A stretch of 64,000 nucleotides of DNA, from NCBI RefSeq assembly GCF_947496775.1, contig NZ_CANMDU010000004.1, positions 218,426-282,425 on the forward strand, given 5' to 3'. A model generated the notes under the pieces. That model saw only the letters and a program-made list of their open reading frames with translations, was not told the origin of the DNA and made no database searches. Of this stretch, positions 6,282-32,725 are shown one piece after another. The position numbers and the translations under genes were made by a program. How positions within the stretch are numbered: position 1 is the stretch's first letter; each line of letters starts with the position of its first letter. Source of the DNA: an uncultured Maribacter sp. Lineage in GTDB: Bacteria > Bacteroidota > Bacteroidia > Flavobacteriales > Flavobacteriaceae.

Positions 6282-9029
6282 ATGAAAGGATTTTTAGAAG
6301 AAACTTTAGAATTAATAGTACAAAAACACGACTCACTTAGTAATCATATTTTTATTCTCCCTAGTAAAAGAGCTGGCACCTTTCTTAAAAATTTAATAGC
6401 TCAAAAAACGACTCAAACTTCCTTTGCTCCAGAAATATTAAGTACCGAAAGTTTTATAGAAAAAATATCGGGCTTATCATACGCATCTAATCTAGAACAA
6501 CTTTTTGAGCTTTACAACACCTATTTACAAAGCAAACCGCAGGAAGTAGAAACATTTTATTCTTTTTCTAAATGGGGACAAACACTACTACAAGATTTTA
6601 ACGAAATAGATAGATACTTAATCGAAACTAAAGATTTGTTTTCTAACCTATCTGCCATACAAGAAATTACCCATTGGTCTCCTGATGCTCCAAAAACACA
6701 GATGATGGATGACTATCTAAAGTTTTGGAATAATCTAGATGCCATATACCAAACATTTAAAAATTCTTTACTTAAAAATAATAAAGGACACCAAGGATTA
6801 GTATATAGGACAGCCACTGAAAAATTAACGGAGTATCTAAAAACAAAACAAAATAACATTTTTGTTTTCCTTGGTTTTAATGCCCTTAATACGTCCGAAA
6901 GCAAAATAATACAGTATATTTTGGAATACCATAATTCTGATATTTATTGGGATATGGATAGTTATTTTATGCAAGATTCTATACATGACGCAAGTTTGTT
7001 TTTAAGAAGCCATAAGAAAGACTGGAATTATTTTAAGACCAATAATTTTAAAGGAGTTAGTAATTACTATAACACTCCTAAAAAAATAGAAATTATTGGT
7101 GCTCCCAAAAATATTTCACAGGCTAAGTATGTCGGCAACCTCTTAAGGCACATAAAAATAGAATCCCCTGATTCTATTAAAAACACTGCCGTTATTCTTG
7201 CAGATGAAACCCTATTAAACCCAATAATAAACTCTATTCCTAAAGAAATAGATGCTATTAATATTACGATGGGCTATGCCTTAGAAAAAACTACTCTAGC
7301 AAGTTTTTTTAATTCCTTTTTCGAGTTATACCTAGGAAACAACTCCAAAGGATGGTTCTATTCTAACTTACTATCTTTTATATCGCATCCGACAACTACA
7401 ACGCTAATTAATGAAAAAGAAGAAGATTGTTGTTCTAAAATTAGTACAACGATAAAAACAAAAAATTGGTCTTACATATCTACATCTAAAATAAAAGCTT
7501 TAGCTCCTGATAACGTAATTCTATCCGAACTCTTTGTAGATGAATCCTATACACCGATAACCTTTATAGAAAAATGCTTACATATTATCTCTGAGCTAAA
7601 AAATATATACACTAGTCAGAGCAATTCTTTAGCATTAGAATATCTATACCGCTTCAATAGCTTATTTAATCAACTTAACACCTTAATACAGGAATATAAC
7701 TACGTAAACGACTTAAAGTCTCTCTTGAGTCTTTATAACGAACTGCTCTCTTCTGAAACTTTAGATTTTAAAGGAGACCCTATTGAAGGACTTCAAATAA
7801 TGGGAATGTTAGAAAGTCGTAATCTAGATTTTGAAACAGTAATTATTACTTCTGTCAATGAAGGAATATTACCTTCTGGAAAGTCGAATAATTCTTTTAT
7901 TCCGTTCGACTTAAAAATTAATCATGGCCTTCCTACGTATAAAGAAAAAGATGCCGTTTATACATATCATTTTTATCGTTTATTACAACGTGCTAAAAAC
8001 ATCTATTTAATTTACAATACAGAACCGGATGTATTAGAAGGTGGTGAAAAAAGTAGATTAATTACTCAACTGCTTACAGACGAGAATAAAACAAAAGATA
8101 TCAAGGAGAAAGTTGCTACACCTATAATAATACCGAATGTAAAAGATTTAGAAATAATAGAAAAAGATTCTGCCTTACTAGAACTTATAAAAGAACATGC
8201 AACGAAAGGGTTTTCACCAACATCGTTAAGTAACTATATTAGGAATCCTATCGATTTTTACAAACGTAATTTATTAAAAATTGAAGATGTTTTAGCAGTA
8301 GAAGAAACCGTTGCGGCAAATACTTTTGGCACTATAGTTCATGATACTTTAGAAGATTTATACACTCCGTTCATAGGAAAACTATTAGATGCGGAGGCTC
8401 TTAAAACATCCAAAAAACAAATCTCAACCTTAGTAAAAAAACACTTCGCACGAACCTATTCTGAAGGAGATATTACACAAGGGAAAAATCTATTAGCCTT
8501 TAACATAATTATTAGATATATAGAAAGATTTGTAGATTTAGAAATTACGCAACTAAAACAAAATTCTATTAAAATAATTGGACTGGAACAACAGTTACGT
8601 GTTAAACTCCATTTTCCTGAGTTAGACTTCCCGGTAACTCTAAAAGGAAAATTAGATCGTATCGATGAAGAAAATGGTTCATTAAGAATTATTGATTATA
8701 AAACAGGTCGTGTAGAGGGCAAAAATGTTACTATTAAAAATTGGGAAAAGGTAACTACAGAATATTCCTTTAGTAAAGCATTTCAACTATTATGTTATAG
8801 CATTATGTACAATGCTAACAATCCGATATCTGAATTACAAGCTGGAATATTAACTTTTAAAAACCTGAATGCTGGTTTATTAAAATTTGCTTACCAAGAA
8901 GGAAAAAGAAAGAGTGCCAATGATAGCATCATAAATCAAGAAATTTTAACTCTATTTACCAAAGAGCTAAAATCACTTGTTTTAGAAATATGTAACCCCA
9001 ATTCTCCTTTTATAGAAAAGGATGTTTAG
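6282..9029 (+). CDS. PD-(D/E)XK nuclease family protein (AddB-like partner of the upstream helicase)
   Basis: A 915-aa product with a C-terminal RIIDYKTGR motif matching the helicase's nuclease motif. This architecture is typical of Bacteroidetes AddAB-type pairs. Confidence 0.7.
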   Translation: MKGFLEETLELIVQKHDSLSNHIFILPSKRAGTFLKNLIAQKTTQTSFAPEILSTESFIEKISGLSYASNLEQLFELYNTYLQSKPQEVETFYSFSKWGQTLLQDFNEIDRYLIETKDLFSNLSAIQEITHWSPDAPKTQMMDDYLKFWNNLDAIYQTFKNSLLKNNKGHQGLVYRTATEKLTEYLKTKQNNIFVFLGFNALNTSESKIIQYILEYHNSDIYWDMDSYFMQDSIHDASLFLRSHKKDWNYFKTNNFKGVSNYYNTPKKIEIIGAPKNISQAKYVGNLLRHIKIESPDSIKNTAVILADETLLNPIINSIPKEIDAINITMGYALEKTTLASFFNSFFELYLGNNSKGWFYSNLLSFISHPTTTTLINEKEEDCCSKISTTIKTKNWSYISTSKIKALAPDNVILSELFVDESYTPITFIEKCLHIISELKNIYTSQSNSLALEYLYRFNSLFNQLNTLIQEYNYVNDLKSLLSLYNELLSSETLDFKGDPIEGLQIMGMLESRNLDFETVIITSVNEGILPSGKSNNSFIPFDLKINHGLPTYKEKDAVYTYHFYRLLQRAKNIYLIYNTEPDVLEGGEKSRLITQLLTDENKTKDIKEKVATPIIIPNVKDLEIIEKDSALLELIKEHATKGFSPTSLSNYIRNPIDFYKRNLLKIEDVLAVEETVAANTFGTIVHDTLEDLYTPFIGKLLDAEALKTSKKQISTLVKKHFARTYSEGDITQGKNLLAFNIIIRYIERFVDLEITQLKQNSIKIIGLEQQLRVKLHFPELDFPVTLKGKLDRIDEENGSLRIIDYKTGRVEGKNVTIKNWEKVTTEYSFSKAFQLLCYSIMYNANNPISELQAGILTFKNLNAGLLKFAYQEGKRKSANDSIINQEILTLFTKELKSLVLEICNPNSPFIEKDV

Positions 9030-22156: not shown

Positions 22157-23173
22157 CTAACTTTTGCTATACAGACTTATAGCTTTTTCCAATTTCTTAG
22201 CAATTCGCTTGCGAAGTCTTTCAGGTTGAATTACTTCAATAGCATCACCAAAACCCAAAATCAAACGTTCCAATTCAAAGTTGATTTTCACTTTGATATT
22301 TACTTCAACACTTCCATCTTCATTTTCTTTTTCAATAATCTGTGAATGATGTAAAGGTTTAGTGACGACATAAGGAGCATTGTATTTGTCAATCCATAAT
22401 TTAATATTAGAAGCCCGTTCCCCTTGGTTAACGGTCACACCTACTATGTCTTTATAAAAGCTGTCTGCATCAAATTCATAGTTGGAATATGGAGTTGTGA
22501 AATCATAGTCAATGGAAATGATTCGGTCAAGGGCCAGATTTACTATGCCCATGTTCTTATTTCCCATCCCAATCAGAAACCATCTGTTGTTAAATTCCTT
22601 CAATAAACAGGGGTGAAAAGTAATTACATTAGCCGTAGCAGCTTTAAAAGATTTATACTCTAATTTCAAAACCACCTTTTTCTGAATAGCTTGATAGAGT
22701 TCGTCAAGCCAATGGAGTCCTTTGAGATTCTCGTTTTTATCTAAATGAATAATGGAGGATTGATGCGTCTTCTCCGTATATACTTTATCTTCTAACCGTT
22801 GAATAATTCCACCCAGTTCTGAAAACAAAGAAAAATCTTTAAACTGCTTTAGCATTTCCACCGTTTCGGAAAGCACATTCATGTCGTTCTCGGTTATCGG
22901 GATATCTGTAATGGAATAATCCTCATCTTCGTATTTGTAATACTTTCTATCATAAGCAACAATTGGAGCATTGTAACCTAGTTTATCACCGCGCATCAAC
23001 TGAATATCGAGTTGCACGGTACGTTTACTTACGTTCACTTCCCTACCCTCGTATTCGTGTAGGGCATCTGAACAGGCCTCTATCAAATCATTCAGAGTCC
23101 ATTGCCGATAGTTATTTTGAAGGCATTTGTCAATAGTTTTGTATCGGATTAGAGCGTTTTTGTTTAGGGCCAT
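22157..23173 (-). CDS. HTH + WYL-domain transcriptional regulator (WCX-like C-terminus)
   Basis: A 338-aa product with an N-terminal DeoR-like HTH (KRTVQLDIQLMR). A central WYL-type domain carries the WFL signature (NRWFLIGM). The architecture matches WYL regulators associated with defence and repair loci. Confidence 0.75.
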   Translation of the reverse strand: MALNKNALIRYKTIDKCLQNNYRQWTLNDLIEACSDALHEYEGREVNVSKRTVQLDIQLMRGDKLGYNAPIVAYDRKYYKYEDEDYSITDIPITENDMNVLSETVEMLKQFKDFSLFSELGGIIQRLEDKVYTEKTHQSSIIHLDKNENLKGLHWLDELYQAIQKKVVLKLEYKSFKAATANVITFHPCLLKEFNNRWFLIGMGNKNMGIVNLALDRIISIDYDFTTPYSNYEFDADSFYKDIVGVTVNQGERASNIKLWIDKYNAPYVVTKPLHHSQIIEKENEDGSVEVNIKVKINFELERLILGFGDAIEVIQPERLRKRIAKKLEKAISLYSKS

Positions 23174-23290
23174 TTAGGAGTATTTTTAATGAAAATACTA
23201 AATCAACCTATACTACGCAAAATAATTGCGCACATGAATCGCAAGTTTGTACCGGAATCATAAAGAAGCCGGTTCACCGACTTCATGTAG

Positions 23291-23398: not shown

Positions 23399-24811
<1,413 letters not shown>

Positions 24812-24836: not shown

Positions 24837-26219
24837 ATGGAAAATTCACAAAATACAAGGCATACAATCTTTGAAGAAGAAGCTTTCCAAAGATTATTAA
24901 AAGAAATAGAACAGAATAATGGAACAGCTATGTTGATAGGTGGAGCCGTTATTGATAACATCAATGGATTAGAAGTAAAAGATATAGATATTGAAGTTTA
25001 TGGTCTTTCCTATGTACAACTTGTTGAGTTGATAGAAGGTTTAGATATGAATTGTAATCTGGTAGGTAAATCTTTTGGAGTTATAAAAACAGTCATTGCT
25101 AATTTCGAAATCGATATGTCAATCCCTAGAAGAGAAAATAAAGTAGGGATAGGTCACAAAGGATTTACCGTTGAATTAGATGCGAAAATGACGCCAAAAG
25201 AAGCAGGTAAAAGAAGAGACCTCACTATTAATAGCATGTATCTAAACTTACATACTGGAGAATTGGTGGATCCATATAATGGGTTGGCAGATTTAGAAAA
25301 AGGAATACTTAGAGCCACGAATGAACATACTTTTATAGAAGACCCTTTACGAGTTTTACGTATTATGCAGCTTTTACCTAGAAAAGGTAAATTAGTAGCA
25401 AAAGAAACGCTAGAGATTTGTAAAAAAATGGTTGAATTTTTTTCTGAATTACAAGCGGAACGCATTTTTGTAGAGTGGGAAAAGTTATTACTAAAAGCTG
25501 AAAGACCTTCTATTGGATTAGAGTTCTTAAAAGCTTCGGGTTGGTTAAAACATTTTCCTGAATTACAAAATTTAGTAGGATGTCCACAAAATCCTATTTG
25601 GCATCCTGAAGGAGATGTTTGGGTGCATACTTGTATGGTTATAGACAATGCGGCTAAACTAAGAGATTTGGTGCCTGAGGATTGGCGGTTAACTTATATG
25701 TTTGGTGCATTGCTACATGACATTGGAAAACCATCAACCACCACACCAGAACTAACGGCTAATGGGCATGATGTTGCAGGAATTCCTTTAGCTGAAACAT
25801 TTATGAAAAGAATTACTAATAATAAGTCACTTATAGAAAGAGTGAGTACAATTGTTGGGTTACACATGAGAGCAGGGCAATTATTTAATTCTAAGGCCAA
25901 AGAGTCTGCTTGGAAACGTCTGCATAATAAATGTAGGTTAGATATTTTAGGATGGCAAAGCAAAGCTGATTCAGCGGGAAGAACTGGTAGAAATGTTATG
26001 TTAGATAAGCATGGAGCATCTGAAAAGTGTTTTGAGCTATTTAAAGAATTTGGTAAAAAAGAGATTCAACGTGTTATTCTGGGTAGAGATTTAATTGCTT
26101 TAGGTCTAAAACCATCCGAAAAATTCGGAGTGATTTTAGACGATTGTTATAAAAAACAACTTGATGGTGCTAGTCGAGAAGAAATTCTACTTAACCTAAA
26201 AAATGCTTCTTTAAAATAA
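24837..26219 (+). CDS. CCA-adding enzyme-like class II nucleotidyltransferase with C-terminal HD phosphohydrolase domain
   Basis: The head-domain motif is GGAVIDNINGLEVKDIDIEV, with RRDLTINSMY and an HD motif (LLHDIGKP). It lies 25 bp downstream of rtcB1, suggesting an operon. Confidence 0.75.
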   Translation: MENSQNTRHTIFEEEAFQRLLKEIEQNNGTAMLIGGAVIDNINGLEVKDIDIEVYGLSYVQLVELIEGLDMNCNLVGKSFGVIKTVIANFEIDMSIPRRENKVGIGHKGFTVELDAKMTPKEAGKRRDLTINSMYLNLHTGELVDPYNGLADLEKGILRATNEHTFIEDPLRVLRIMQLLPRKGKLVAKETLEICKKMVEFFSELQAERIFVEWEKLLLKAERPSIGLEFLKASGWLKHFPELQNLVGCPQNPIWHPEGDVWVHTCMVIDNAAKLRDLVPEDWRLTYMFGALLHDIGKPSTTTPELTANGHDVAGIPLAETFMKRITNNKSLIERVSTIVGLHMRAGQLFNSKAKESAWKRLHNKCRLDILGWQSKADSAGRTGRNVMLDKHGASEKCFELFKEFGKKEIQRVILGRDLIALGLKPSEKFGVILDDCYKKQLDGASREEILLNLKNASLK

Positions 26220-26317: not shown

Positions 26318-26608
26318 ATGATGAATTGGAAAATTCAAAAATTGCAAGATGGTGAGACTATCATTTCAAAAGAACCTGGTAATTCTATGTTACCTATACT
26401 AAAATCTAAACAACCTGTTAGGCTTGCGCCAATAAGTTGGGAAAATTGTAAGGTAGGTGATATTGTATTCTGTAAAGTACGTGGAAATGTATTTACGCAC
26501 CTTGTAAAAGGAAAAAGTGACAAACGCGGTTTACTCATTGGTAATAATAGCGGTAGAATTAACGGATGGACCAAAAATGTGTATGGTAAAGTAATAGAAA
26601 TATTATAG
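26318..26608 (+). CDS. Standalone S24 (LexA/UmuD-like) serine peptidase domain protein
   Basis: A 96-aa product with GNSMLP (G-x-SM catalytic Ser motif) and a downstream GDIVF...NVFTHLVKGK (Lys dyad region). The pattern parallels the LexA C-terminal domain. Confidence 0.5.
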   Translation: MMNWKIQKLQDGETIISKEPGNSMLPILKSKQPVRLAPISWENCKVGDIVFCKVRGNVFTHLVKGKSDKRGLLIGNNSGRINGWTKNVYGKVIEIL

Positions 26609-26758
26609 GCATCATACCACATTTTATTCTTTAAATTTTAAAAGTAAATCATAAAAACAAAGTACATGCTAAATCATTTTAATCACATACCGGACGCTAA
26701 AAAGCTAAAATTGCATCGAATTGATGGGTAGATACTATTGAAAACAGATACATAACTA

Positions 26759-26787
26759 GAGCGTCCAAGATATTGGGCGCTTTTTTT
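26759..26787 (+). terminator. Intrinsic terminator AGCGTCCAA-GATAT-TTGGGCGCT-T7 (element A)
   Basis: A 9-bp stem with one G.U pair precedes a T7 run. An upstream GGACGCT (26692-26698) can alternatively pair with the 5' stem arm. Confidence 0.7.
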
Positions 26788-27139
26788 ATGTAAATTTTTT
26801 AGAGAATTCTCAAAATTCTAAAAGAATGCCATTTGAAAGCTAAGCATTTGAAAAACAGCAAATTGATGAATAATGCTGCTATCTGTTAACTAACGGACAG
26901 GCTATCTTATGTCTAAATTTAACCGCAAACAATTGATTGTCAGTAATTTATATTTAATTTTATTTGTGTAATTCAAATATCCGTTTTAGATTTGCACCAG
27001 AATTAAACAATAACATTTTTAACTGAAGTATATATGACAATTTCAATCACATATCAAAAAACACTACAAGCACCAGGTGCAATTGTAGTGTCGCTTCAGG
27101 ACTTCATACACGCATAGCGCTACTCGCAATATGATAGAA

Positions 27140-27171
27140 AGTCCGAAGCTCCAAAGTTTCGGACTTTTTTT
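27140..27171 (+). terminator. Intrinsic terminator AGTCCGAA-N10-TTCGGACT-T7 about 100 bp upstream of rtcB2
   Basis: A perfect 8-bp stem is followed by T7. Confidence 0.75.
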
Positions 27172-27228
27172 ATGCCCTTCTTTTTCGAGGCACAACTTTC
27201 CGAATTAACATATCAAATCTAGTATGGT

Positions 27229-27242
27229 TTCCATAAATGGAA
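27229..27242. promoter_or_regulatory. Palindrome TTCCATAAATGGAA 29 bp upstream of rtcB2 start (candidate operator)
   Basis: A perfect 6-2-6 inverted repeat read from the sequence. Confidence 0.3.
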
Positions 27243-27270
27243 CAGCCATCCTATTCCTAAAATTAAAATC

Positions 27271-28662
27271 ATGGGAAAGAAATTAAGCGGAAAAGACCTA
27301 ATTAAATTGGGATTTCCAAAGAACAATAGTATCAACATTACATTAGGTCAAATCAATCGGTATCACAAACGAGTAAAGAAAGAACAGATACTGAGAGAAG
27401 CCAAAAAAGTATTGTTACATCCTGAAAACTATAAAGGTGATGGGGTTTGGGGTAAGATTGCTGAAAGTTTGGTAGATCCTGTAATAGTGAAAAAGCATGC
27501 ACTCAAAGCGGTACGCGCACCATTTCATATTTATGGTGAAAATGAAATTGAAGAACAAGCCAAGTATCAATTGTATGATGCCTTAAAACTTCCAGTTTCT
27601 GTTGCCGGCGCATTGATGCCAGATGCACATTCTGGTTATGGTTTACCCATTGGTGGTGTTTTGGCAACGAAGAATTCGGTGATTCCTTATGGAGTAGGCG
27701 TTGATATCGGTTGTAGAATGTGTTTGACTATTTATCCTATTCCAGTCTCTTATCTGAAAGGAAAGAAACATCAATTGTCGAACATCCTTTCTGAGCATAC
27801 CAAATTCGGAATGCGAGAAACGCATCAAATAAAACATGACCATGAAATCTTTGAAAGAGATGAATTTAACGACATCCCTTTGGTAAAAAGATTGAAAGAC
27901 AAAGCCTATAAGCAATTAGGAACCTCAGGTGGAGGAAATCATTTTGTCGAGTTCGGAAGTGTTTCTATAATGGATGCAAAAAACGAATGGGGATTAAAAT
28001 CTGGAGAATATCTAGGCATATTATCTCACAGCGGTTCACGAGGGTTGGGTGCAAATATTGCAAAGCACTATACCTATTTGGCAACTAAGCAATGTCCGTT
28101 ACCAAAGCAAGTACAACACTTGGCTTGGTTAGATTTAAATACGCACGACGGGCAAGAATATTGGTTAGCTATGAATTTAGCTGGCGATTATGCAACCGCA
28201 TGTCATGATAATATTCACAAGCGTCTGGCCAAATTAATTGGAGAAAAAGCGGTGGCAAAAATTGACAATCATCACAATTTCGCTTGGAAAGAAGAGGTAA
28301 ACGGCGAAGAATGCATTGTGCACAGAAAAGGAGCTACACCAGCAGGGAAAGGAGTATTGGGGATTATACCTGGCTCAATGACCGCTCCTGGTTACATCGT
28401 AAAAGGTTTGGGTAACAAGGAGAGTTTACACTCTGCTTCCCACGGTGCAGGACGTCTTTTTTCAAGACGAAAGTGTAAAGAAACGTTTACTCGCAGCGAG
28501 ATTAAAAAGCAATTAGACGCAAATGAGGTAAGCCTTATAGGTGGAGGAATTGATGAAGCACCAATGGCCTACAAAAACATTGAAAAGGTCATGGCAAATC
28601 AACAAGAATTGGTTGAAGTACTCGGAACCTTTACACCCAAAATAGTGCGAATGGATAAATAA
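27271..28662 (+). CDS. rtcB: RtcB-family RNA ligase (paralog 2, PrfH-associated 'RtcB2' type)
   Basis: RtcB motifs are present: MPDAHSGYG, DIGCRMC, GGGNHF, HSGSRG, HHNFAW and SHGAGR. It lies immediately upstream of a prfH-like gene. Confidence 0.85.
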   Translation: MGKKLSGKDLIKLGFPKNNSINITLGQINRYHKRVKKEQILREAKKVLLHPENYKGDGVWGKIAESLVDPVIVKKHALKAVRAPFHIYGENEIEEQAKYQLYDALKLPVSVAGALMPDAHSGYGLPIGGVLATKNSVIPYGVGVDIGCRMCLTIYPIPVSYLKGKKHQLSNILSEHTKFGMRETHQIKHDHEIFERDEFNDIPLVKRLKDKAYKQLGTSGGGNHFVEFGSVSIMDAKNEWGLKSGEYLGILSHSGSRGLGANIAKHYTYLATKQCPLPKQVQHLAWLDLNTHDGQEYWLAMNLAGDYATACHDNIHKRLAKLIGEKAVAKIDNHHNFAWKEEVNGEECIVHRKGATPAGKGVLGIIPGSMTAPGYIVKGLGNKESLHSASHGAGRLFSRRKCKETFTRSEIKKQLDANEVSLIGGGIDEAPMAYKNIEKVMANQQELVEVLGTFTPKIVRMDK

Positions 28663-28757: not shown

Positions 28758-29450
28758 ATGGAAAAAATAATACAAATAACAGCAGGAAGAGGCCCAGCAG
28801 AATGTAGCTGGGTTGTTTCCCAAGTGCTTAGGAAATTCTTGCAAGAAGCCAAGACTGAAGGGTTTCAGTATGTCATCTTGCAAAGAGAAAAAGGCAATCA
28901 AAATGGAACGATACAATCAGTCAGCATCCGCTTGAAAGGGGCAACCCTAGAAGTTTTTTTAGCTACTTGGTTAGGAACAATTCAATGGATTGGCAACTCA
29001 ACTTTTCGAAAATACCACAAACGTAAAAACTGGTTTATCGGAGCTTTCGAATTGAAATTGCCACAGCATTCTGAAATATGTGACAGAGATATCTCTTTTC
29101 AAACGATGAGAAGTGCAGGTCCTGGTGGTCAGAATGTAAATAAGGTAAACTCAGCCGTACGGGCAATTCATACCCCCACAGGAGTACAAGTAGTTGCCAT
29201 GGATAGTCGTTCGCAACATCAAAACAAAAAACTTGCGATAGCCCGATTAAAAGAAAAAGCAAACGAGGCTAACATAGAAAAGCTTAAAGAAAGGATGACG
29301 GACCAATGGGAAAATCATCTGAATATAGAACGCGGAAATCCGGTCCGGATTTTTAAAGGAACCGATTTCAAACACCAAAAAGAAAATAAAAGCTTTAAAC
29401 CAAAACGGCAAAAGCTAAAAAACGATTTAAAACAACAAAAATGGGACTAA
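28758..29450 (+). CDS. prfH: PrfH-like peptide chain release factor homologue (GGQ peptidyl-tRNA hydrolase domain, lacks RF domain 1)
   Basis: A 230-aa product with a GPAECS N-terminal signature like PrfH GPEEC. The GGQ motif sits in RSAGPGGQNVNKV. Pairing with rtcB is the hallmark of rtcB2-prfH modules. Confidence 0.8.
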   Translation: MEKIIQITAGRGPAECSWVVSQVLRKFLQEAKTEGFQYVILQREKGNQNGTIQSVSIRLKGATLEVFLATWLGTIQWIGNSTFRKYHKRKNWFIGAFELKLPQHSEICDRDISFQTMRSAGPGGQNVNKVNSAVRAIHTPTGVQVVAMDSRSQHQNKKLAIARLKEKANEANIEKLKERMTDQWENHLNIERGNPVRIFKGTDFKHQKENKSFKPKRQKLKNDLKQQKWD

Positions 29451-29986
29451 CAATAGCCGATACCTATTATTTAAAAGCAAAGGCGGCATCTGGTTATGAT
29501 TGGGACGAAGTTTGTGAATCACTGAACTACGCCCTGTCCTACGATGAAAATCATTGTGCCTCCCTTTGTCTTTTAGGTAAAGTTTATGCTCGAAATTTGA
29601 ATCAGTATTCGGAAGCATTCGATTGCTTTGATAGGGTGATAGCAATTGATACTTATAATATAGATGTATACCCATTATATGCTAAGTATTTAATCTGGGC
29701 GGATGAAAATGAAAAGGCGTTTCGATTAATTGAATTTGCTCTTTCTATAAAAGGTATAGATAAAGCTCAGCTGTACTGTATTTCGGCCTATGCATTAGAA
29801 ACAAATGGAAATTATAAGGTTGCGCTGCAACATTTAAAAGAAGCAAAAAGACTTACCTATAACAATGACTATATGTTTTATATAGTTGATGAAGAAAATA
29901 GAATTAAAAAGAAATTGAAATTGGATAAATCTAAAGCACAAAAGAAGAAATTATCAACTAAAAAAAGGAAGAAAAAGAACAAATAG
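29441..29986 (+). CDS. TPR-repeat protein with lysine-rich C-terminal tail, translationally coupled to prfH
   Basis: A 181-aa product with TPR-like helical repeats. The C-terminal tail KKKLKLDKSKAQKKKLSTKKRKKKNK is basic. The ATG overlaps the prfH stop (ATGGGACTAA). Confidence 0.6.
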   Translation: MGLTIADTYYLKAKAASGYDWDEVCESLNYALSYDENHCASLCLLGKVYARNLNQYSEAFDCFDRVIAIDTYNIDVYPLYAKYLIWADENEKAFRLIEFALSIKGIDKAQLYCISAYALETNGNYKVALQHLKEAKRLTYNNDYMFYIVDEENRIKKKLKLDKSKAQKKKLSTKKRKKKNK

Positions 29987-30171
29987 TAGTAACAAAACGT
30001 TTAAAAATAACATCTTTGTAAACAAATGACACCGAGAGAGTTACATATCATCCAACAAATAGAGCTTTGGCTCTTCTATTTTCGCTCAGAATATAGTGAG
30101 CGAAACGGACGCTATGTGACTTTATCCAACAGTTGATTCTATGAAATAACTCGATTAAGCGATAAAATGAA

Positions 30172-30202
30172 AGCGTCCAATTACAATTGGGCGCTTTTTT
30201 TG
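30172..30202 (+). terminator. Intrinsic terminator AGCGTCCAA-TTACAA-TTGGGCGCT-T7 (element B, homologous to element A)
   Basis: It has the same 9-bp stem, including the same G.U position, as 26759-26787. GGACGCT lies upstream at 30107-30113. Confidence 0.7.
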
Positions 30203-30377
30203 TGGAATAATTTTAAACAATTGAATGAGAAGTAAAAAAATACAAAACTAGATAGTTGAATTACGAAACAATTGATATACAGGCGATTGTAGCACATATT
30301 CGAAATGCTTTTCTGCATTCATGAGCAACGATTTATAAAATAAAGAATAGGCGAACTAATCCTGTCTGTTCCACCAT

Positions 30378-30450
30378 AAGAGTATAGTTCAATTGGATAG
30401 AACGCTGGGCTACGAACCCAGAAATGCGAGTTCGAGTCTTGCTACTTCTG
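30378..30450 (+). tRNA. tRNA-Arg(ACG), hand-folded; A2.C71 mismatch and G.U in T-stem
   Basis: The D-arm is TAGTTCAATTGGATAGAAC, the anticodon stem CTGGG/CCCAG has loop CTACGAA, and the T-loop is GTTCGAGTC. A hairpin AACTACGCA/TGCGTAGTT lies downstream at 30471-30495. Confidence 0.55.
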
Positions 30451-30525
30451 CTAAAAACAAAAGAAATCTGAACTACGCATAATAATTGCGTAGTTATGTT
30501 TCAGTTTTGTGAAGTAATTGGAAAA

Positions 30526-30730
30526 TACCTCTTTAGCTTAAAAGGAAGAGCTGTGGTAAAAGATATTGATCGTAGCCACGGAGTGATTGGAAGATGTTGT
30601 TAGCGGCGTGCCTGCTAATGAATAGAATTTGCAGAAGCACCGAAATAGTCAAGTACCAAAGTAGGGAAGCGCATTTATAGCCAATCTGTTCGTTTCGACG
30701 AAAGTGCCAGTTCGAATCTGGCAAGAGGTA
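30526..30730 (+). ncRNA. Split tRNA-like element: 5' acceptor+D-arm (30526-30550) and T-arm+3' acceptor (30706-30730) separated by ~150 nt
   Basis: The 5' side is ACCTCTT-TA-GCTT-AAAAGGAA-GAGC. The 3' side is GCCAG-TTCGAAT-CTGGC-AAGAGGT-A, with perfectly complementary 7-bp acceptor strands. No canonical anticodon arm is found between them. Confidence 0.35.
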
Positions 30731-30905
30731 CAAAGTTCTTTGAAAAGAAATTTCTGCTTAGGCAGGATTAACAATATCAAGCTGGTCTTGTTGGGTGTTT
30801 CTGTAGGGCACTATTGTATGAAGTTTTACTGAGAAGTATAATGTCTTCATGTATAACTTGACTTGATGGTTTCGATTGTTTACCAAAAAACAATCTCCGC
30901 GCTGT

Positions 30906-30935
30906 GGGTCATGGGTTCGAATCCCATCGGTTCTG
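30906..30935 (+). other. tRNA 3'-part fragment (variable loop + T-arm ATGGG-TTCGAAT-CCCAT + acceptor 3' strand CGGTTCT-G) lacking a cognate 5' half upstream
   Basis: It has a canonical T-arm, but no D-arm or anticodon arm lies within 90 nt upstream. Confidence 0.5.
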
Positions 30936-30938
30936 AAA

Positions 30939-31004
30939 AGAACCGTAGTTCAGAGGTTAGAACAACAGACGTAGGTGTCATGGGTTCGATTCCCATCAGG
31001 CTTG
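30939..31004 (+). pseudogene. Degenerate/mosaic tRNA: 5' acceptor AGAACCG + D-arm, truncated anticodon region, T-arm, non-matching 3' acceptor CAGGCTT
   Basis: It is 66 nt long. Its 5' acceptor complements the 3' acceptor of the preceding fragment, not its own. Only 16 nt lie between the D-arm and the T-arm. Confidence 0.45.
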
Positions 31005-31005
31005 A

Positions 31006-31048
31006 AAACCTGTAGCTCAGTTGGTAGAGCACTACACTTTTAATGTAG
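31006..31048 (+). pseudogene. tRNA-Lys(UUU) 5' portion (acceptor AAACCTG, D-arm TAGCTCAGTTGGTAGAGC, anticodon stem-loop CTACA-CTTTTAA-TGTAG) without canonical T-arm/3' acceptor
   Basis: The downstream sequence gives the hairpin ATGGA-CTGAAAA-TCCAT but no matching acceptor strand. Its 5' acceptor nearly complements the 3' acceptor of the preceding element. Confidence 0.45.
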
Positions 31049-31450
31049 GTTATGGACTGAAAATCCATTTTCAACAAGAAGGTCACTTGTAAAAAGACCA
31101 CCGGATGGTCACTCCGTATAATTGACAAAAACAGTAGTTGTACATCGGTCATTATTTCCTAAAGAGGAGTAAAGACAATCATGAAGCTACTTTGAAATGG
31201 TGATTTTTTTGATGTGAAAGGCAAATCCTTTTTTAGTCATCCTTCCTTCTGGAAAACTGATAACAATTTTATTAGTAAGACAATCGGATGCATGCTATAA
31301 AACGAATTGTAACGAGTATCAAAAACCAGTATTTCCGTATCAGAAAGATGATATGCCCCTGCTGTTTTTTTAAATAGAACAAATAGTAATACATGATAAT
31401 AGTTTAACCCGTTCGTCCGTCACTAGACTGGCGGACACAAATTTTAAGTA

Positions 31451-32551
31451 ATGAAAAGAGTAAGAATTAATGCAGGAAAAGTAGGTTTGGTCTTCAAAAG
31501 AGGCGATTACCAAAAAGTAATTACCCAAGGTACACATTGGGTAGGTTTTAGAAATGTGGTTATGATTTATGACCTTACCAAAGCCTTTGTTGCTCCTATA
31601 GCATTAGAAATCTTGCTACAGGACCAAGATTTGGAAGCAATGTTGCATATCATCGAAGTTAAAGATGCTGAACTGGCTTTGGTTTCTGAAAACGGAAACT
31701 TGAAGCAGGTCTTGACAGCTGGTAAGTACGCTTTCTGGAAAGGTTTGATCAACTATGAGTTCGTTATAGCAGACTTGAGTAAAATCTATATCACTGAGGC
31801 TATTACCAAAGCGATGTTGAGCCATACACAATTACTTCCTTACGTTCGTGTTTTGGAAGTTGCCGCACATGAAAAAGCTGTTCTTTTGGTTGATGATGTT
31901 TATATCAAGACTCTCGAAAGTGGTGCTTACCATTTCTGGAAAAATGATATCTCCATCAAAATCGCCAGAGCGGATATGCGTCAATTGCAATTGGAGATTT
32001 CTGGTCAAGAATTGTTGACAAAAGACAAGGCTGCTATTCGTATCAACTTCTATACGCAGTATAAAGTTATAGATATCGAAAAGGCCTTGCTAGGAAGCAA
32101 AGACTACGAGAAGCAATTGTACATTGCTATGCAGTTGGTATTGCGTGCCTATATCGGCACCTATACGCTAGATGAACTTCTAGAGCGAAAAGAAAGCATC
32201 GCGGAAGCGGTATTTGCAGATATCAAAACGGATACTACACAATTAGGTGTTGAAGTTCTGAGCTGCGGTATCCGTGATGTAATCTTAACTGGTGAAATGA
32301 AAGACATAATGAACCAGGTTTTGGTGGCTCAGAAGAGAGCTCAAGCGAATATCATTACCCGGCGTGAAGAAACGGCGTCGACCCGAAGCTTGCTGAACAC
32401 CGCAAAACTAATGGAAGACAACGAAATGCTCTTCAAGCTGAAGGAAATGGAATACGTTGAAAAGATTGCCGAAAAAATCGGTGAGATTACCGTCTCCGGT
32501 AACGGAGGTATGGTAAAACAATTGAAGGAGATTTTCTCCGTCAATAAGTAG
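31451..32551 (+). CDS. SPFH/band-7 domain protein
   Basis: A 366-aa product. The C-terminal half matches the SPFH pattern (LTKDKAAIRINFYTQYKV...LDELLERKESIAEAV...GVEVLSCGIRDVILTGEMKDIMNQVLVAQKRAQANII). Confidence 0.65.
   Translation: MKRVRINAGKVGLVFKRGDYQKVITQGTHWVGFRNVVMIYDLTKAFVAPIALEILLQDQDLEAMLHIIEVKDAELALVSENGNLKQVLTAGKYAFWKGLINYEFVIADLSKIYITEAITKAMLSHTQLLPYVRVLEVAAHEKAVLLVDDVYIKTLESGAYHFWKNDISIKIARADMRQLQLEISGQELLTKDKAAIRINFYTQYKVIDIEKALLGSKDYEKQLYIAMQLVLRAYIGTYTLDELLERKESIAEAVFADIKTDTTQLGVEVLSCGIRDVILTGEMKDIMNQVLVAQKRAQANIITRREETASTRSLLNTAKLMEDNEMLFKLKEMEYVEKIAEKIGEITVSGNGGMVKQLKEIFSVNK

Positions 32552-32647: not shown

Positions 32648-32725
<78 letters not shown>

Follow-up and report, generated by a model that had tools for sequence, protein, structure and literature searches.

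A stretch of 64,000 nucleotides (nt) from an uncultured Maribacter sp. (contig NZ_CANMDU010000004.1, positions 218,426 to 282,425, hereafter the window) carries an RNA-repair locus in which three RNA genes, elements A, B and C, lie between genes for RtcB-type RNA ligases and a gene for a Band-7 (SPFH) protein. Element A is a tRNA-Arg(ACG), element B is a tRNA-shaped RNA with a large branched insert, and element C is an RNA with two circularly permuted tRNA domains. The structures of B and C are conserved among relatives, and the best explanation of them, which we hold to be somewhat better than an even bet, is that B and C are tRNA-mimic RNAs of an RNA-repair and translation-rescue locus and act together with the Band-7 protein.

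The genes of the locus follow one another in the order WYL regulator, RtcB1, CCA enzyme, orf96, RtcB2, PrfH, TPR protein, RNAs and Band-7. For comparison we used 80 Flavobacteriaceae loci retrieved with the Band-7 protein (L001-L080), the nearest of which, also from an uncultured Maribacter, is about 90% identical across the RNA region. The RNA features, in window coordinates, are as follows.

30378 to 31200, + strand: RNA region with three RNA genes, elements A, B and C.
30378 to 30451, + strand: element A, tRNA-Arg(ACG), called by ARAGORN and matched by the Rfam tRNA model RF00005 (56.5 bits against a threshold of 29), with no encoded CCA.
30527 to 30730, + strand: element B, tRNA-shaped RNA of 204 nt, from covariation alignments of homologues.
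About 30772 to 31176, + strand: element C, RNA of about 400 nt, from alignments of related loci.
30772 to 30905, + strand: 5' domain of C, a structured leader with covarying hairpins (RNAalifold on 38 sequences, 33 pairs, 14 of them compensatory).
30902 to 30968, + strand: permuted tRNA domain 1 of C, from the structure test described below.
30975 to 31048, + strand: permuted tRNA domain 2 of C, from an Rfam YrlA match and the same structure test.
31052 to 31176, + strand: 3' domain of C, from an alignment of 79 sequences.
31176 to 31200, + strand: highly conserved box CAAUCAUGAAGCUACUUUGAAAUG, with the consensus CAGTCTTGAAAGTACTTTGAAATA, from the alignment.

Structure of element C

The tRNA-like core of C was written out as a named structure and tested on 27 homologues, against controls in which the pairing partners were slid by 1-3 columns and against 500 shuffles. 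In the named structure 95.8% of cells pair, compared with 35-49% in the slid controls, and 25 of the 46 pairs show compensatory changes (196 cells), a value reached by 0 of the 500 shuffles. Domain 1 consists, in order, of CUGU, a variable loop (V-loop), a T-arm (30911-27), an acceptor hairpin (30928-45), UA, a D-arm (30948-63), A and ACAG. Its acceptor hairpin has 7 base pairs (bp; CGGUUCU-GAAA-AGAACCG), and its anticodon stem, in which CUGU/ACAG covaries with CUAU/AUAG, is open to the flanking RNA and has no anticodon loop. Domain 2 runs from a V-loop through a T-arm (30980-96), an acceptor hairpin (30997-31012; CAGGCUU-GA-AAACCUG), UA and a D-arm (31015-30) to a complete anticodon arm (31032-48; CUACA-CUUUUAA-UGUAG), which pairs in 99.3% of cells and has compensatory changes at 3 of its 5 pairs. 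The anticodon-like loop reads CUCAUAA in 22 loci and CUUUUAA in 21. Many of the domain 2 hairpin loops start with ACC(A/U), which reads like an encoded discriminator followed by CC(A). At all 14 acceptor-hairpin pairs of C both sides vary, and each pair occurs as 3-5 pair types.

At every junction from a T-loop to a D-arm in the loci, we also compared the seven bases 3' of the T-stem with the seven bases 5' of the D-arm. Inside C the two are complementary at 7/7 positions in 56 of the 102 junctions, whereas in the ordinary tRNA arrays of the related loci the mode is 3/7 (277 junctions). The 3'-before-5' order in C is therefore that of a closed acceptor stem and so of a circularly permuted tRNA fold.

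An initial annotation of this DNA, made from the sequence alone, had already noticed that T-arm and 3' acceptor segments precede the 5' acceptor and D-arm segments at 30906-31048. This order is confirmed and occurs twice, the second unit being followed by the anticodon loop CUUUUAA. Since neither ARAGORN nor Rfam returned a simple array of intact tRNAs at these coordinates, the hand folds of that annotation were in register. It had gone on, however, to treat the two strands as unrelated halves left behind by integrase-mediated insertion and excision, marking a mobile island and a recombination hotspot. Integration at tRNA genes is classic, the window has a tRNA-Ala(GGC) of housekeeping appearance a short way downstream on the opposite strand, and most of the tRNA array of the window has clearly been deleted. 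RtcB-PrfH modules are moreover sporadic and are thought to have spread horizontally (PMC6514570). Against duplicated att sites, the Pfam scan of open reading frames (ORFs) of at least 180 amino acids (aa) in the 64-kb window found no integrase, recombinase or transposase domain, and the T-arm/acceptor segment has no distal direct repeat in the window, its sole repeat being the internal pair 30908-39 and 30977-31008; there is thus neither an integrase nor a copy of the tRNA 3' part at a far end. The same architecture recurs in 79/79 loci across genera, and the supposed fragments pair with one another and covary at all 14 positions, as scars would not. In practice the covariation refutes the recombination reading, to which we give next to no chance.

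The 3' domain of C contains a hairpin at 31052-68, an H-type pseudoknot formed by ACAAG/CUUGU (31074-90) with GGUC/GACC (31081-84 and 31096-99), a tail hairpin at 31102-16, the loop of which (GUCA) is able to pair with UGAC at 31123-26, and, at about 31148-76, a terminal hairpin. All of these find support across the 79 sequences; the pseudoknot stem covaries among them (GC:47, UA:23, AU:4, CG:3), as does the terminal hairpin. Two further structural candidates were discarded. A closing stem of YrlA style for domain 2 (GUAG/CUAC) lacks covariation and performs no better than shuffles, and for the 7-nt loop YUGUCAC of the tail, considered as an Asp anticodon mimic, pairing with the downstream UGAC is likelier. 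Minimum free energy folds of single sequences were uninformative for both RNAs (z = -1.5 for B and -2.6 for C).

The box at 31176-31200 may mark where C ends on its 3' side, or may regulate Band-7. Its consensus CAGTCTTGAAAGTACTTTGAAATA holds the direct repeat CTTGAAA/CTTTGAAA, and more conserved patches are found at 31292-31399, before the Band-7 start.

Structure of element B

In element B the 5' acceptor ACCUCUU (30527-33) is the exact complement of the 3' acceptor AAGAGGU (30723-29), a D-arm is present, and the T-arm GCCAG-UUCGAAU-CUGGC lies at 30706-22, about 165 nt beyond the D-arm. The split element was thus in the sequence as first described, at 30526-30730. The accompanying remark that it has no anticodon arm needs correction: a 5-bp stem, GUGGU/GCCAC, occupies the position, with a loop of 19 nt. 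The helices of B comprise the 7-bp acceptor, the D-arm, this 5-bp stem, a long-range helix around a branched insert, a variable hairpin and the T-arm; the variable region is expanded by about 120 nt, branched, and provided with an invariant core. The discriminator is A and is followed by CAA. Neither ARAGORN nor the Rfam tRNA model calls B, and it has no cloverleaf of normal size.

Homologues of B number 29 among the 80 Flavobacteriaceae loci. In an alignment of 25 sequences (A1, RNAalifold) 18 of 51 pairs are compensatory, and in an alignment of 27 diverse copies (A3) the figure rises to 35 of 50. Two stretches are invariant across the diverse copies and together make a core of about 45 nt that is shared across phyla; they are UUUGCAGAAGCACCGAAA, which served as the search key for B copies, and GUAGGGAAGCGCAUUU, which was not part of the key. 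Within the core, CC/GG pairs flank GAA opposite AGUA, an arrangement that may represent a bulged-G-like or loop-E motif. There is also a likeness between the invariant CACCGAAA of B and the CCGA/CGAA core by which Y RNAs bind Ro. The motif GACGAAAG at 30697 was rejected as a Ro-binding motif, as it is not conserved in homologues.

Like tmRNA, B has a tRNA-like frame of acceptor and T-arm round a large insert. It differs in having C3-G70 in the window and in copies of Bacteroidota type, and in that its D-arm is real and its anticodon position is occupied by a stem. The mini-ORF that it contains (GCA GAA GCA CCG AAA ...) loses its frame in homologues, with indels in L070 and L061, and no tmRNA was called in B by ARAGORN or Rfam. 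We therefore rejected B as a mini-tmRNA with the tag AEAPK, on the grounds that 1-nt indels break the frame in homologues and that the window has C3-G70.

Distribution and gene linkage

The segment 30732-31450 is conserved directly 5' of the Band-7 gene almost everywhere in the 80 loci, and A and B are present in subsets only. A profile search (nhmmer) of the 79 loci with a complete upstream region detected the 5' and 3' domains of C in 79/79, from many Flavobacteriaceae genera, at medians of -750 and -443 from the Band-7 start codon, and B in 29/79. The recurring order in relatives is WYL, RtcB1, RtcB2, PrfH, TPR, tRNA array, B, C and Band-7. Metagenome loci whose Band-7 proteins are more distant (57-59% identity) likewise carry permuted modules, placed between B and Band-7.

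In five relatives (L003, L006, L007, L009 and L012) GOLLD RNA (RF02032) is found between B and C. The copy in L006 (L006:8717-9199) matches the full model with 121.5 bits (E = 3e-33), under the gathering score, and holds an embedded permuted tRNA-like module with an anticodon arm. This position links GOLLD to RtcB/Band-7 repair loci and agrees with its known residence in tRNA arrays. In the window itself Rfam gave no match to GOLLD, and none to ROOL, even at E <= 10.

An exact 18-mer of the B core matches at least 120 metagenome contigs; among the matches listed, 51 contigs have B at near-full length and 11 have the core only. B sits within or at the end of same-strand tRNA arrays, often beside a divergent WYL regulator, and is followed by C and Band-7 or adjoins RtcB, Band-7 and RlaP nucleotidyltransferases (L163, L101). 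It is beside both Band-7 and RtcB in L163, L124, L187 and L090, and in L151 it stands directly 5' of a Ro60/Rsr orthologue (6630-8435; TROVE 101 bits, with vWA_Ro60). Further upstream, L151 has an RNaseH_like (PF04308) protein and a divergent homologue of the WYL regulator, and in L165, another B locus of Ro60/Rsr type, an AAA ATPase lies upstream.

B-like RNA also occurs in tRNA arrays of high-GC soil metagenomes, between tRNA-Thr(TGT) and tRNA-Thr(CGT) in L109 (2145-2362) and likewise in L153, L160, L149, L167, L106, L190, L138 and L170. The copy in L109 has G3.U70, A73 and an encoded CCA, and these make up the identity set of tRNA-Ala and tmRNA. Three uncultivated viral contigs carry a shorter B-like RNA (about 181 nt) with the same invariant core in phage tRNA arrays (L208:3818-3998; L210:5352-5534, - strand; L206:375-502), the copy in L210 with G3.U70 and A73. 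Isolated phages gave no match to B-like RNA. A phage origin of the window was also considered and set aside, as there was no DNA match in the phage collection and the Band-7 protein has no close relative in viral contigs.

The enterobacterial rtcR-slipin-nucleotidyltransferase loci, together with one Subdoligranulum locus, were examined for RNA of the element C type, and none was found there. The operon in question consists of rtcR, a slipin 32-35% identical to the Band-7 protein of the window, and a nucleotidyltransferase (L082, Citrobacter freundii; L081, E. coli). The Citrobacter leader between rtcR and the slipin gene (L082:6546-6995) has a T-arm, GGGTTCGATTCCC, and then a hairpin, TTTCAT/ATGAAA; neither ARAGORN nor Rfam finds a tRNA-like RNA in this leader.

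Putative operator and promoter

Two operator-like sites and a promoter box were identified in the window.

23212 to 23234, unstranded: palindromic operator-like site ACTACGCA-N6-TTGCGCACA in the WYL/rtcB1 intergenic region, with three mismatches, followed by CAAGTTTG.
30472 to 30494, unstranded: perfect palindrome ACTACGCATAATAATTGCGTAGT, operator-like, between A and B and 5' of B and C.
30502 to 30509, + strand: CAGTTTTG, a variant of the Bacteroidota -7 box, separated from the operator by 7 nt and from B by 17 nt.

The palindrome ACTACGCA-N6-TTGCGTAGT has four matches in the window (both strands of two sites), against 0.07 expected by chance. In relatives it is likewise found upstream of rtcB1 and upstream of B/C, with at least one copy in 44/80 loci. 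The B/C operator is followed 7-8 nt on by CAnnTTTG and GTAATTAAAAAC, which are conserved in relatives, and both operator copies of the window precede a CAnnTTTG box. This box resembles the -7 promoter consensus of Bacteroidota, TAnnTTTG. In loci without B the operator and promoter directly precede C. From this arrangement we infer that B and C form a single transcription unit co-regulated with rtcB1, and the palindrome is probably the binding site of the adjacent WYL/WCX regulator.

Comparison with known RNAs

At permissive thresholds Rfam matched YrlA (RF02553) to 30972-31037 with 43.4 bits (E = 7.1e-8, model positions 23-88), and at gathering thresholds it gave a weak tRNA match at 31013-31068. 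At E <= 10 there were only tRNA and partial YrlA matches and no family for 30526-30730; neither B nor C is present in Rfam 15. The initial suggestion of a Y-RNA-like tRNA mimic was essentially right in idea and was attached to the wrong element, for the YrlA match falls on 30906-31048 and not on 30526-30730.

YrlA RNAs, whose genes accompany those of Ro60 and RtcB, mimic tRNA in permuted form, and that of M. smegmatis has a 7-bp acceptor hairpin, is cleaved by RNase P and has CCA added (PMC4201824). C has the permuted YrlA arrangement of T-arm, loop-closed acceptor and D-arm twice over, with covariation, and shares with YrlA the conserved elbow nucleotides, a joining helix that resembles an anticodon stem and the setting in an RtcB repair operon; its 7-bp acceptor hairpin resembles that of the M. 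smegmatis RNA. Unlike YrlA, it joins two tandem tRNA domains to a large covarying leader and a pseudoknotted tail within about 400 nt, and its domain 2 has a full anticodon arm in place of the closing stem. The partner gene differs as well, being Band-7: among window ORFs of at least 180 aa none has a TROVE domain, and hence no rsr (Ro60) gene was found within about 4 kb of C. The range of the YrlA match leaves out the Ro-binding part of the model, and C does not show the YrlA combination of a Ro-binding motif with a terminal stem joining the 5' and 3' ends.

According to Wang et al., Burroughs and Aravind (2016) predicted b7a-tRNA, a Band-7-associated tRNA-like RNA next to RtcB, as an analogue of Ro-YrlA; b7a-tRNA sometimes adjoins Rsr and YrlA sometimes adjoins Band-7, neither case being validated, and b7a-tRNA is said to "strongly resemble an authentic tRNA" (10.1101/312249). 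Measured against this description, B resembles b7a-tRNA as a tRNA-like RNA beside Band-7 and RtcB, B and C of the window lying between RtcB2-PrfH-TPR and Band-7. The occasional neighbourhood of Rsr is found too, in L151, where B is 5' of the TROVE/vWA_Ro60 protein. A YrlA-like RNA beside Band-7, as the same source mentions (10.1101/312249), fits element C. B differs from the quoted description in its length of 204 nt and in escaping ARAGORN and the Rfam tRNA model. Going by this secondary description, B is probably the predicted b7a-tRNA; the array tRNAs themselves could also have been meant. On present evidence, C is a mimic of YrlA type and B an RNA of b7a type.

An engineered permuted tRNA with a tetraloop-closed acceptor mimics nicked tRNA, binds RtcR and is ligated by RtcB (PMC10159003). 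Domain 1 of C has the identical topology, with a tetraloop in place of the ACCA end and a chain that ends in the anticodon region. The engineered construct is, however, a laboratory RNA with a 2',3'-cyclic phosphate end, whereas domain 1 is embedded in C and has no free ends unless it is processed. Domain 1 is not a permuted tRNA gene of the Cyanidioschyzon type either, since it has no anticodon loop and its CUGU/ACAG stem is open.

Under translational stress, long tRNA arrays (L-arrays) are regulated and induced jointly with rtcB, and they may serve as sponges (PMC8421152). The arrays of our relatives resemble L-arrays and the cryptic tRNA operon of Anabaena (PMC8421152) in their packed same-strand tRNAs near RNA-processing genes including rtcB. 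The window, unlike L-arrays and the GOLLD arrays of mycobacteria and phages, has one array tRNA, the only one that ARAGORN calls there and too few for an L-array, and no GOLLD. In the literature on long tRNA arrays we found no description of B or C as array components.

Proposed function of elements B and C

Bacterial RtcB systems reseal broken tRNAs and rRNA, and B and C are good candidates for RNA cofactors or decoys in such repair of the translation machinery. The analysis establishes their structure, their conservation, their linkage to the neighbouring genes and the operator in common with rtcB1, while transcription, assembly into ribonucleoproteins (RNPs) and function we infer. Because the B/C promoter carries the operator palindrome of rtcB1, the WYL regulator would induce B and C together with the ligase. 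A tRNA elbow and a 12-bp coaxial stack of acceptor and T-stem would make both RNAs resemble tRNAs; domain 1, with its chain open at the anticodon loop, would resemble an anticodon-nicked tRNA, and in domain 2 the chain is open after the anticodon arm. Through this shape B and C may assemble with a soluble Band-7 protein as an RNP comparable to Ro60-YrlA, which might recruit or present tRNA-handling enzymes (RtcB, CCA enzyme, RNase P) or compete with tRNAs for tRNA-cleaving toxins. Judged from the sequences, a role as RNP or cofactor with Band-7, possibly with some decoy activity, is most likely.

Several observations weigh against this explanation. The YrlA match of C, at 43.4 bits, is below the gathering threshold of 69 bits, and the Ro-binding motif GNCGAAN0-1G is absent from 30772-31200. 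Operator and regulator are paired by position alone. Part of the locus is decaying, element A having lost the array promoter and carrying an acceptor mismatch. Finally, C is on the Band-7 strand with no clear terminator between them and therefore could be a cis-acting 5' leader.

As a leader of the Band-7 mRNA, C would use its tRNA-like domains to sense a tRNA-binding factor or tRNA damage and so control Band-7. The constant strand and fixed distance from the Band-7 start codon in 79 loci agree with this, as do the lack of a convincing intrinsic terminator between C and Band-7, the conserved box at 31176-31200 with the patches at 31292-31399 in the same interval, and the T-arm and hairpin of the Citrobacter leader between rtcR and the slipin gene. 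However, the interval of about 250 nt between C and the start codon is much less conserved, the 7-bp acceptor hairpins with ACC(A/U) loops resemble substrates of RNase P and the CCA enzyme, and in five relatives GOLLD lies in the same transcription unit between B and C, which a string of processed RNAs fits better. YrlA-type RNAs of the same fold are stable and trans-acting (PMC4201824). We consider a leader of this kind unlikely.

It has also to be asked whether the array tRNAs, B and C are simply induced decoys or sponges for tRNA-targeting nucleases (of phages, colicin-like or from toxin-antitoxin systems), with no Band-7 partnership. The 7-nt anticodon-like loop of domain 2 is intact and, as CUUUUAA or CUCAUAA, resembles the loops of Lys(UUU) and Met(CAU), both known targets of tRNases; B-like RNAs are moreover present in phage tRNA arrays. 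A sponge role has been proposed for array tRNAs (PMC8421152), and for YrlA the competitive inhibition of an anticodon nuclease (PMC7790460). Domain 1, however, lacks any anticodon loop, a protein partner is suggested by the strict linkage of C with Band-7 (79/79) and of B with Band-7 or Ro60, and the 45-nt core of B, invariant across phyla, suggests a specific binding or catalytic role over bulk mimicry. Decoy activity by itself is quite improbable as the whole explanation.

B and C might further represent two undescribed RNA classes, C as the RNA subunit of a soluble Band-7 (SPFH) particle and B as a universal companion of tRNA arrays. We advance this tentatively and think it rather doubtful. 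If true, the C-Band-7 particle would be a functional counterpart of the Ro60-Y RNA or vault RNPs, and the permuted domains of C, by offering "broken-tRNA" shapes, would load or regulate RtcB and the CCA enzyme, or else titrate anticodon nucleases. The core of B (UUUGCAGAAGCACCGAAA ... GUAGGGAAGCGCAUUU) would then be a binding site or catalytic centre common to Band-7-based and Ro60-based repair, phage arrays included.

The locus brings two RtcB ligases, PrfH, a CCA-repair enzyme, an array remnant, B, C and Band-7 into a single regulated unit with a likely operator and regulator, and it joins four mostly separate subjects, namely tRNA arrays, GOLLD RNA, Ro60/Y RNA and Band-7 systems. Because neither RNA is in Rfam 15, the covariation-backed structures and boundaries of B and C can be converted into covariance models. 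Cultivable hosts (Zobellia, Maribacter and Flagellimonas) make the question of scaffold or decoy directly testable.

Element A and the tRNA array

Most relatives have up to about 19 same-strand tRNA genes between the TPR gene and B/C, at roughly -4000 to -800 of the Band-7 start. These arrays have a conserved order, spacers of 3-6 nt and no encoded CCA, and tRNA-Arg(ACG) often comes last. Some array tRNAs in relatives bear odd anticodons (ATA, ATC, AAA, ATG). The closest relative keeps eight array tRNAs and the window keeps only tRNA-Arg(ACG), which the initial annotation had folded correctly, with its one A.C mismatch (A2.C71). The acceptor stem of element A also has a G3.U70 wobble, and the anticodon loop has 7 nt; the A2.C71 mismatch differs by one G-to-A change from the G2-C71 of L001. 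A promoter-like segment 5' of the arrays in relatives is a copy of 26893-27009, which contains TAGATTTG, and is absent before element A. The rest of the array and its promoter have been deleted in the window, at 30306-30378. As the sole array tRNA, with an acceptor mismatch and the array promoter gone, element A is the last remnant of the array of this locus and is possibly decaying.

One could extend such decay to B and C and regard their modules as functionless pseudogene remains of array tRNAs. The collapse of the array of the window to one tRNA with an acceptor mismatch is in line with this, and permuted modules plausibly arose from adjacent tRNA genes in an array with spacers of only 3-6 nt. 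The compensatory changes, however, indicate strong purifying selection on structure, the single-stranded cores are invariant, and the elements are found across genera, across phyla and in viral contigs. We regard pseudogene remains, which the covariation already speaks against, as a very improbable account of B and C.

Other genes of the locus

The proteins of the window were searched with Pfam and NCBIfam, the domain scan covering every ORF of at least 180 aa in the 64 kb. The neighbouring genes are as follows.

22157 to 23173, - strand: WYL + WCX transcription regulator, divergent from rtcB1, with its position kept in relatives (Pfam WYL and WCX; PADLOC WYL models).
23402 to 24811, + strand: RtcB-family RNA ligase 1, RtcB1 (Pfam RtcB, 129.8 bits).
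24837 to 26219, + strand: paralogue of the CCA-adding/repair enzyme (Pfam PolyA_pol head, RNA-binding and HD domains).
26318 to 26608, + strand: orf96, a conserved ORF of 96 aa (85-96% identity in relatives).
27271 to 28662, + strand: RtcB2, PrfH-associated RNA ligase (Pfam RtcB, 284 bits; NCBIfam release_rtcB, 158 bits, under the cut-off).
28758 to 29450, + strand: PrfH, peptide chain release factor H (NCBIfam TIGR03072 equivalog, 232 bits against a cut-off of 166.65).
29441 to 29986, + strand: TPR protein, PrfH-RtcB accessory (weak Pfam TPR matches, all under cut-offs).
31451 to 32551, + strand: Band-7/SPFH "slipin" protein of 366 aa (Pfam Band_7).
32648 to 32722, - strand: tRNA-Ala(GGC) (ARAGORN), about 100 nt 3' of the Band-7 stop codon, on the opposite strand.

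The Band-7 protein has more than 6500 homologues, and inspection of its translation by eye revealed no evident hydrophobic membrane segment. For the CCA enzyme paralogue the top NCBIfam match was the multifunctional CCA addition/repair protein, under the cut-off. PrfH and RtcB2 are reported to rescue and repair ribosomes damaged by colicin E3. The TPR gene, a listed accessory of PrfH-RtcB systems (PMC6514570), is kept 5' of the tRNA array in relatives. No TROVE/Ro60 domain was found in any window ORF of at least 180 aa, and PHROGs and PADLOC gave nothing in the window besides WYL.

Searches of Pfam, NCBIfam and PHROGs found no family match for orf96, whose conservation across genera exceeds that of RtcB1. 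A homologue that is 47% identical is encoded on a viral contig (L206:3534-3806), where it adjoins a tRNA array and a tmRNA.

Over the 64 kb ARAGORN called two tRNAs only, tRNA-Arg(ACG) and tRNA-Ala(GGC). The site of the latter may be the junction of the repair locus and the core genome; in other loci (L011, L016) a tRNA-Met or tRNA-Pro occupies the equivalent place. The flanks of the locus are ordinary Bacteroidota chromosome, with type IX secretion system (T9SS) tail and TonB-type proteins and a GC content of about 33%.

The region upstream of rtcB2 (26609-27270) is 80-95% conserved across genera. A perfect -7 box of Bacteroidota type, TAGATTTG, lies in it at 26987-26994 and is followed by a leader of about 270 nt 5' of rtcB2, which ends in a terminator-like hairpin and U-run (about 27140-27177) that may be an attenuator. 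About 320 nt 3' of the TPR stop codon (29987-30306) are likewise 80-90% conserved across genera, and the terminator at the end of this segment (30165-30205) is near-identical to that at 26745-26790. The segments 29987-30306 and 26740-26808 could be two small-RNA genes or shared terminator modules.

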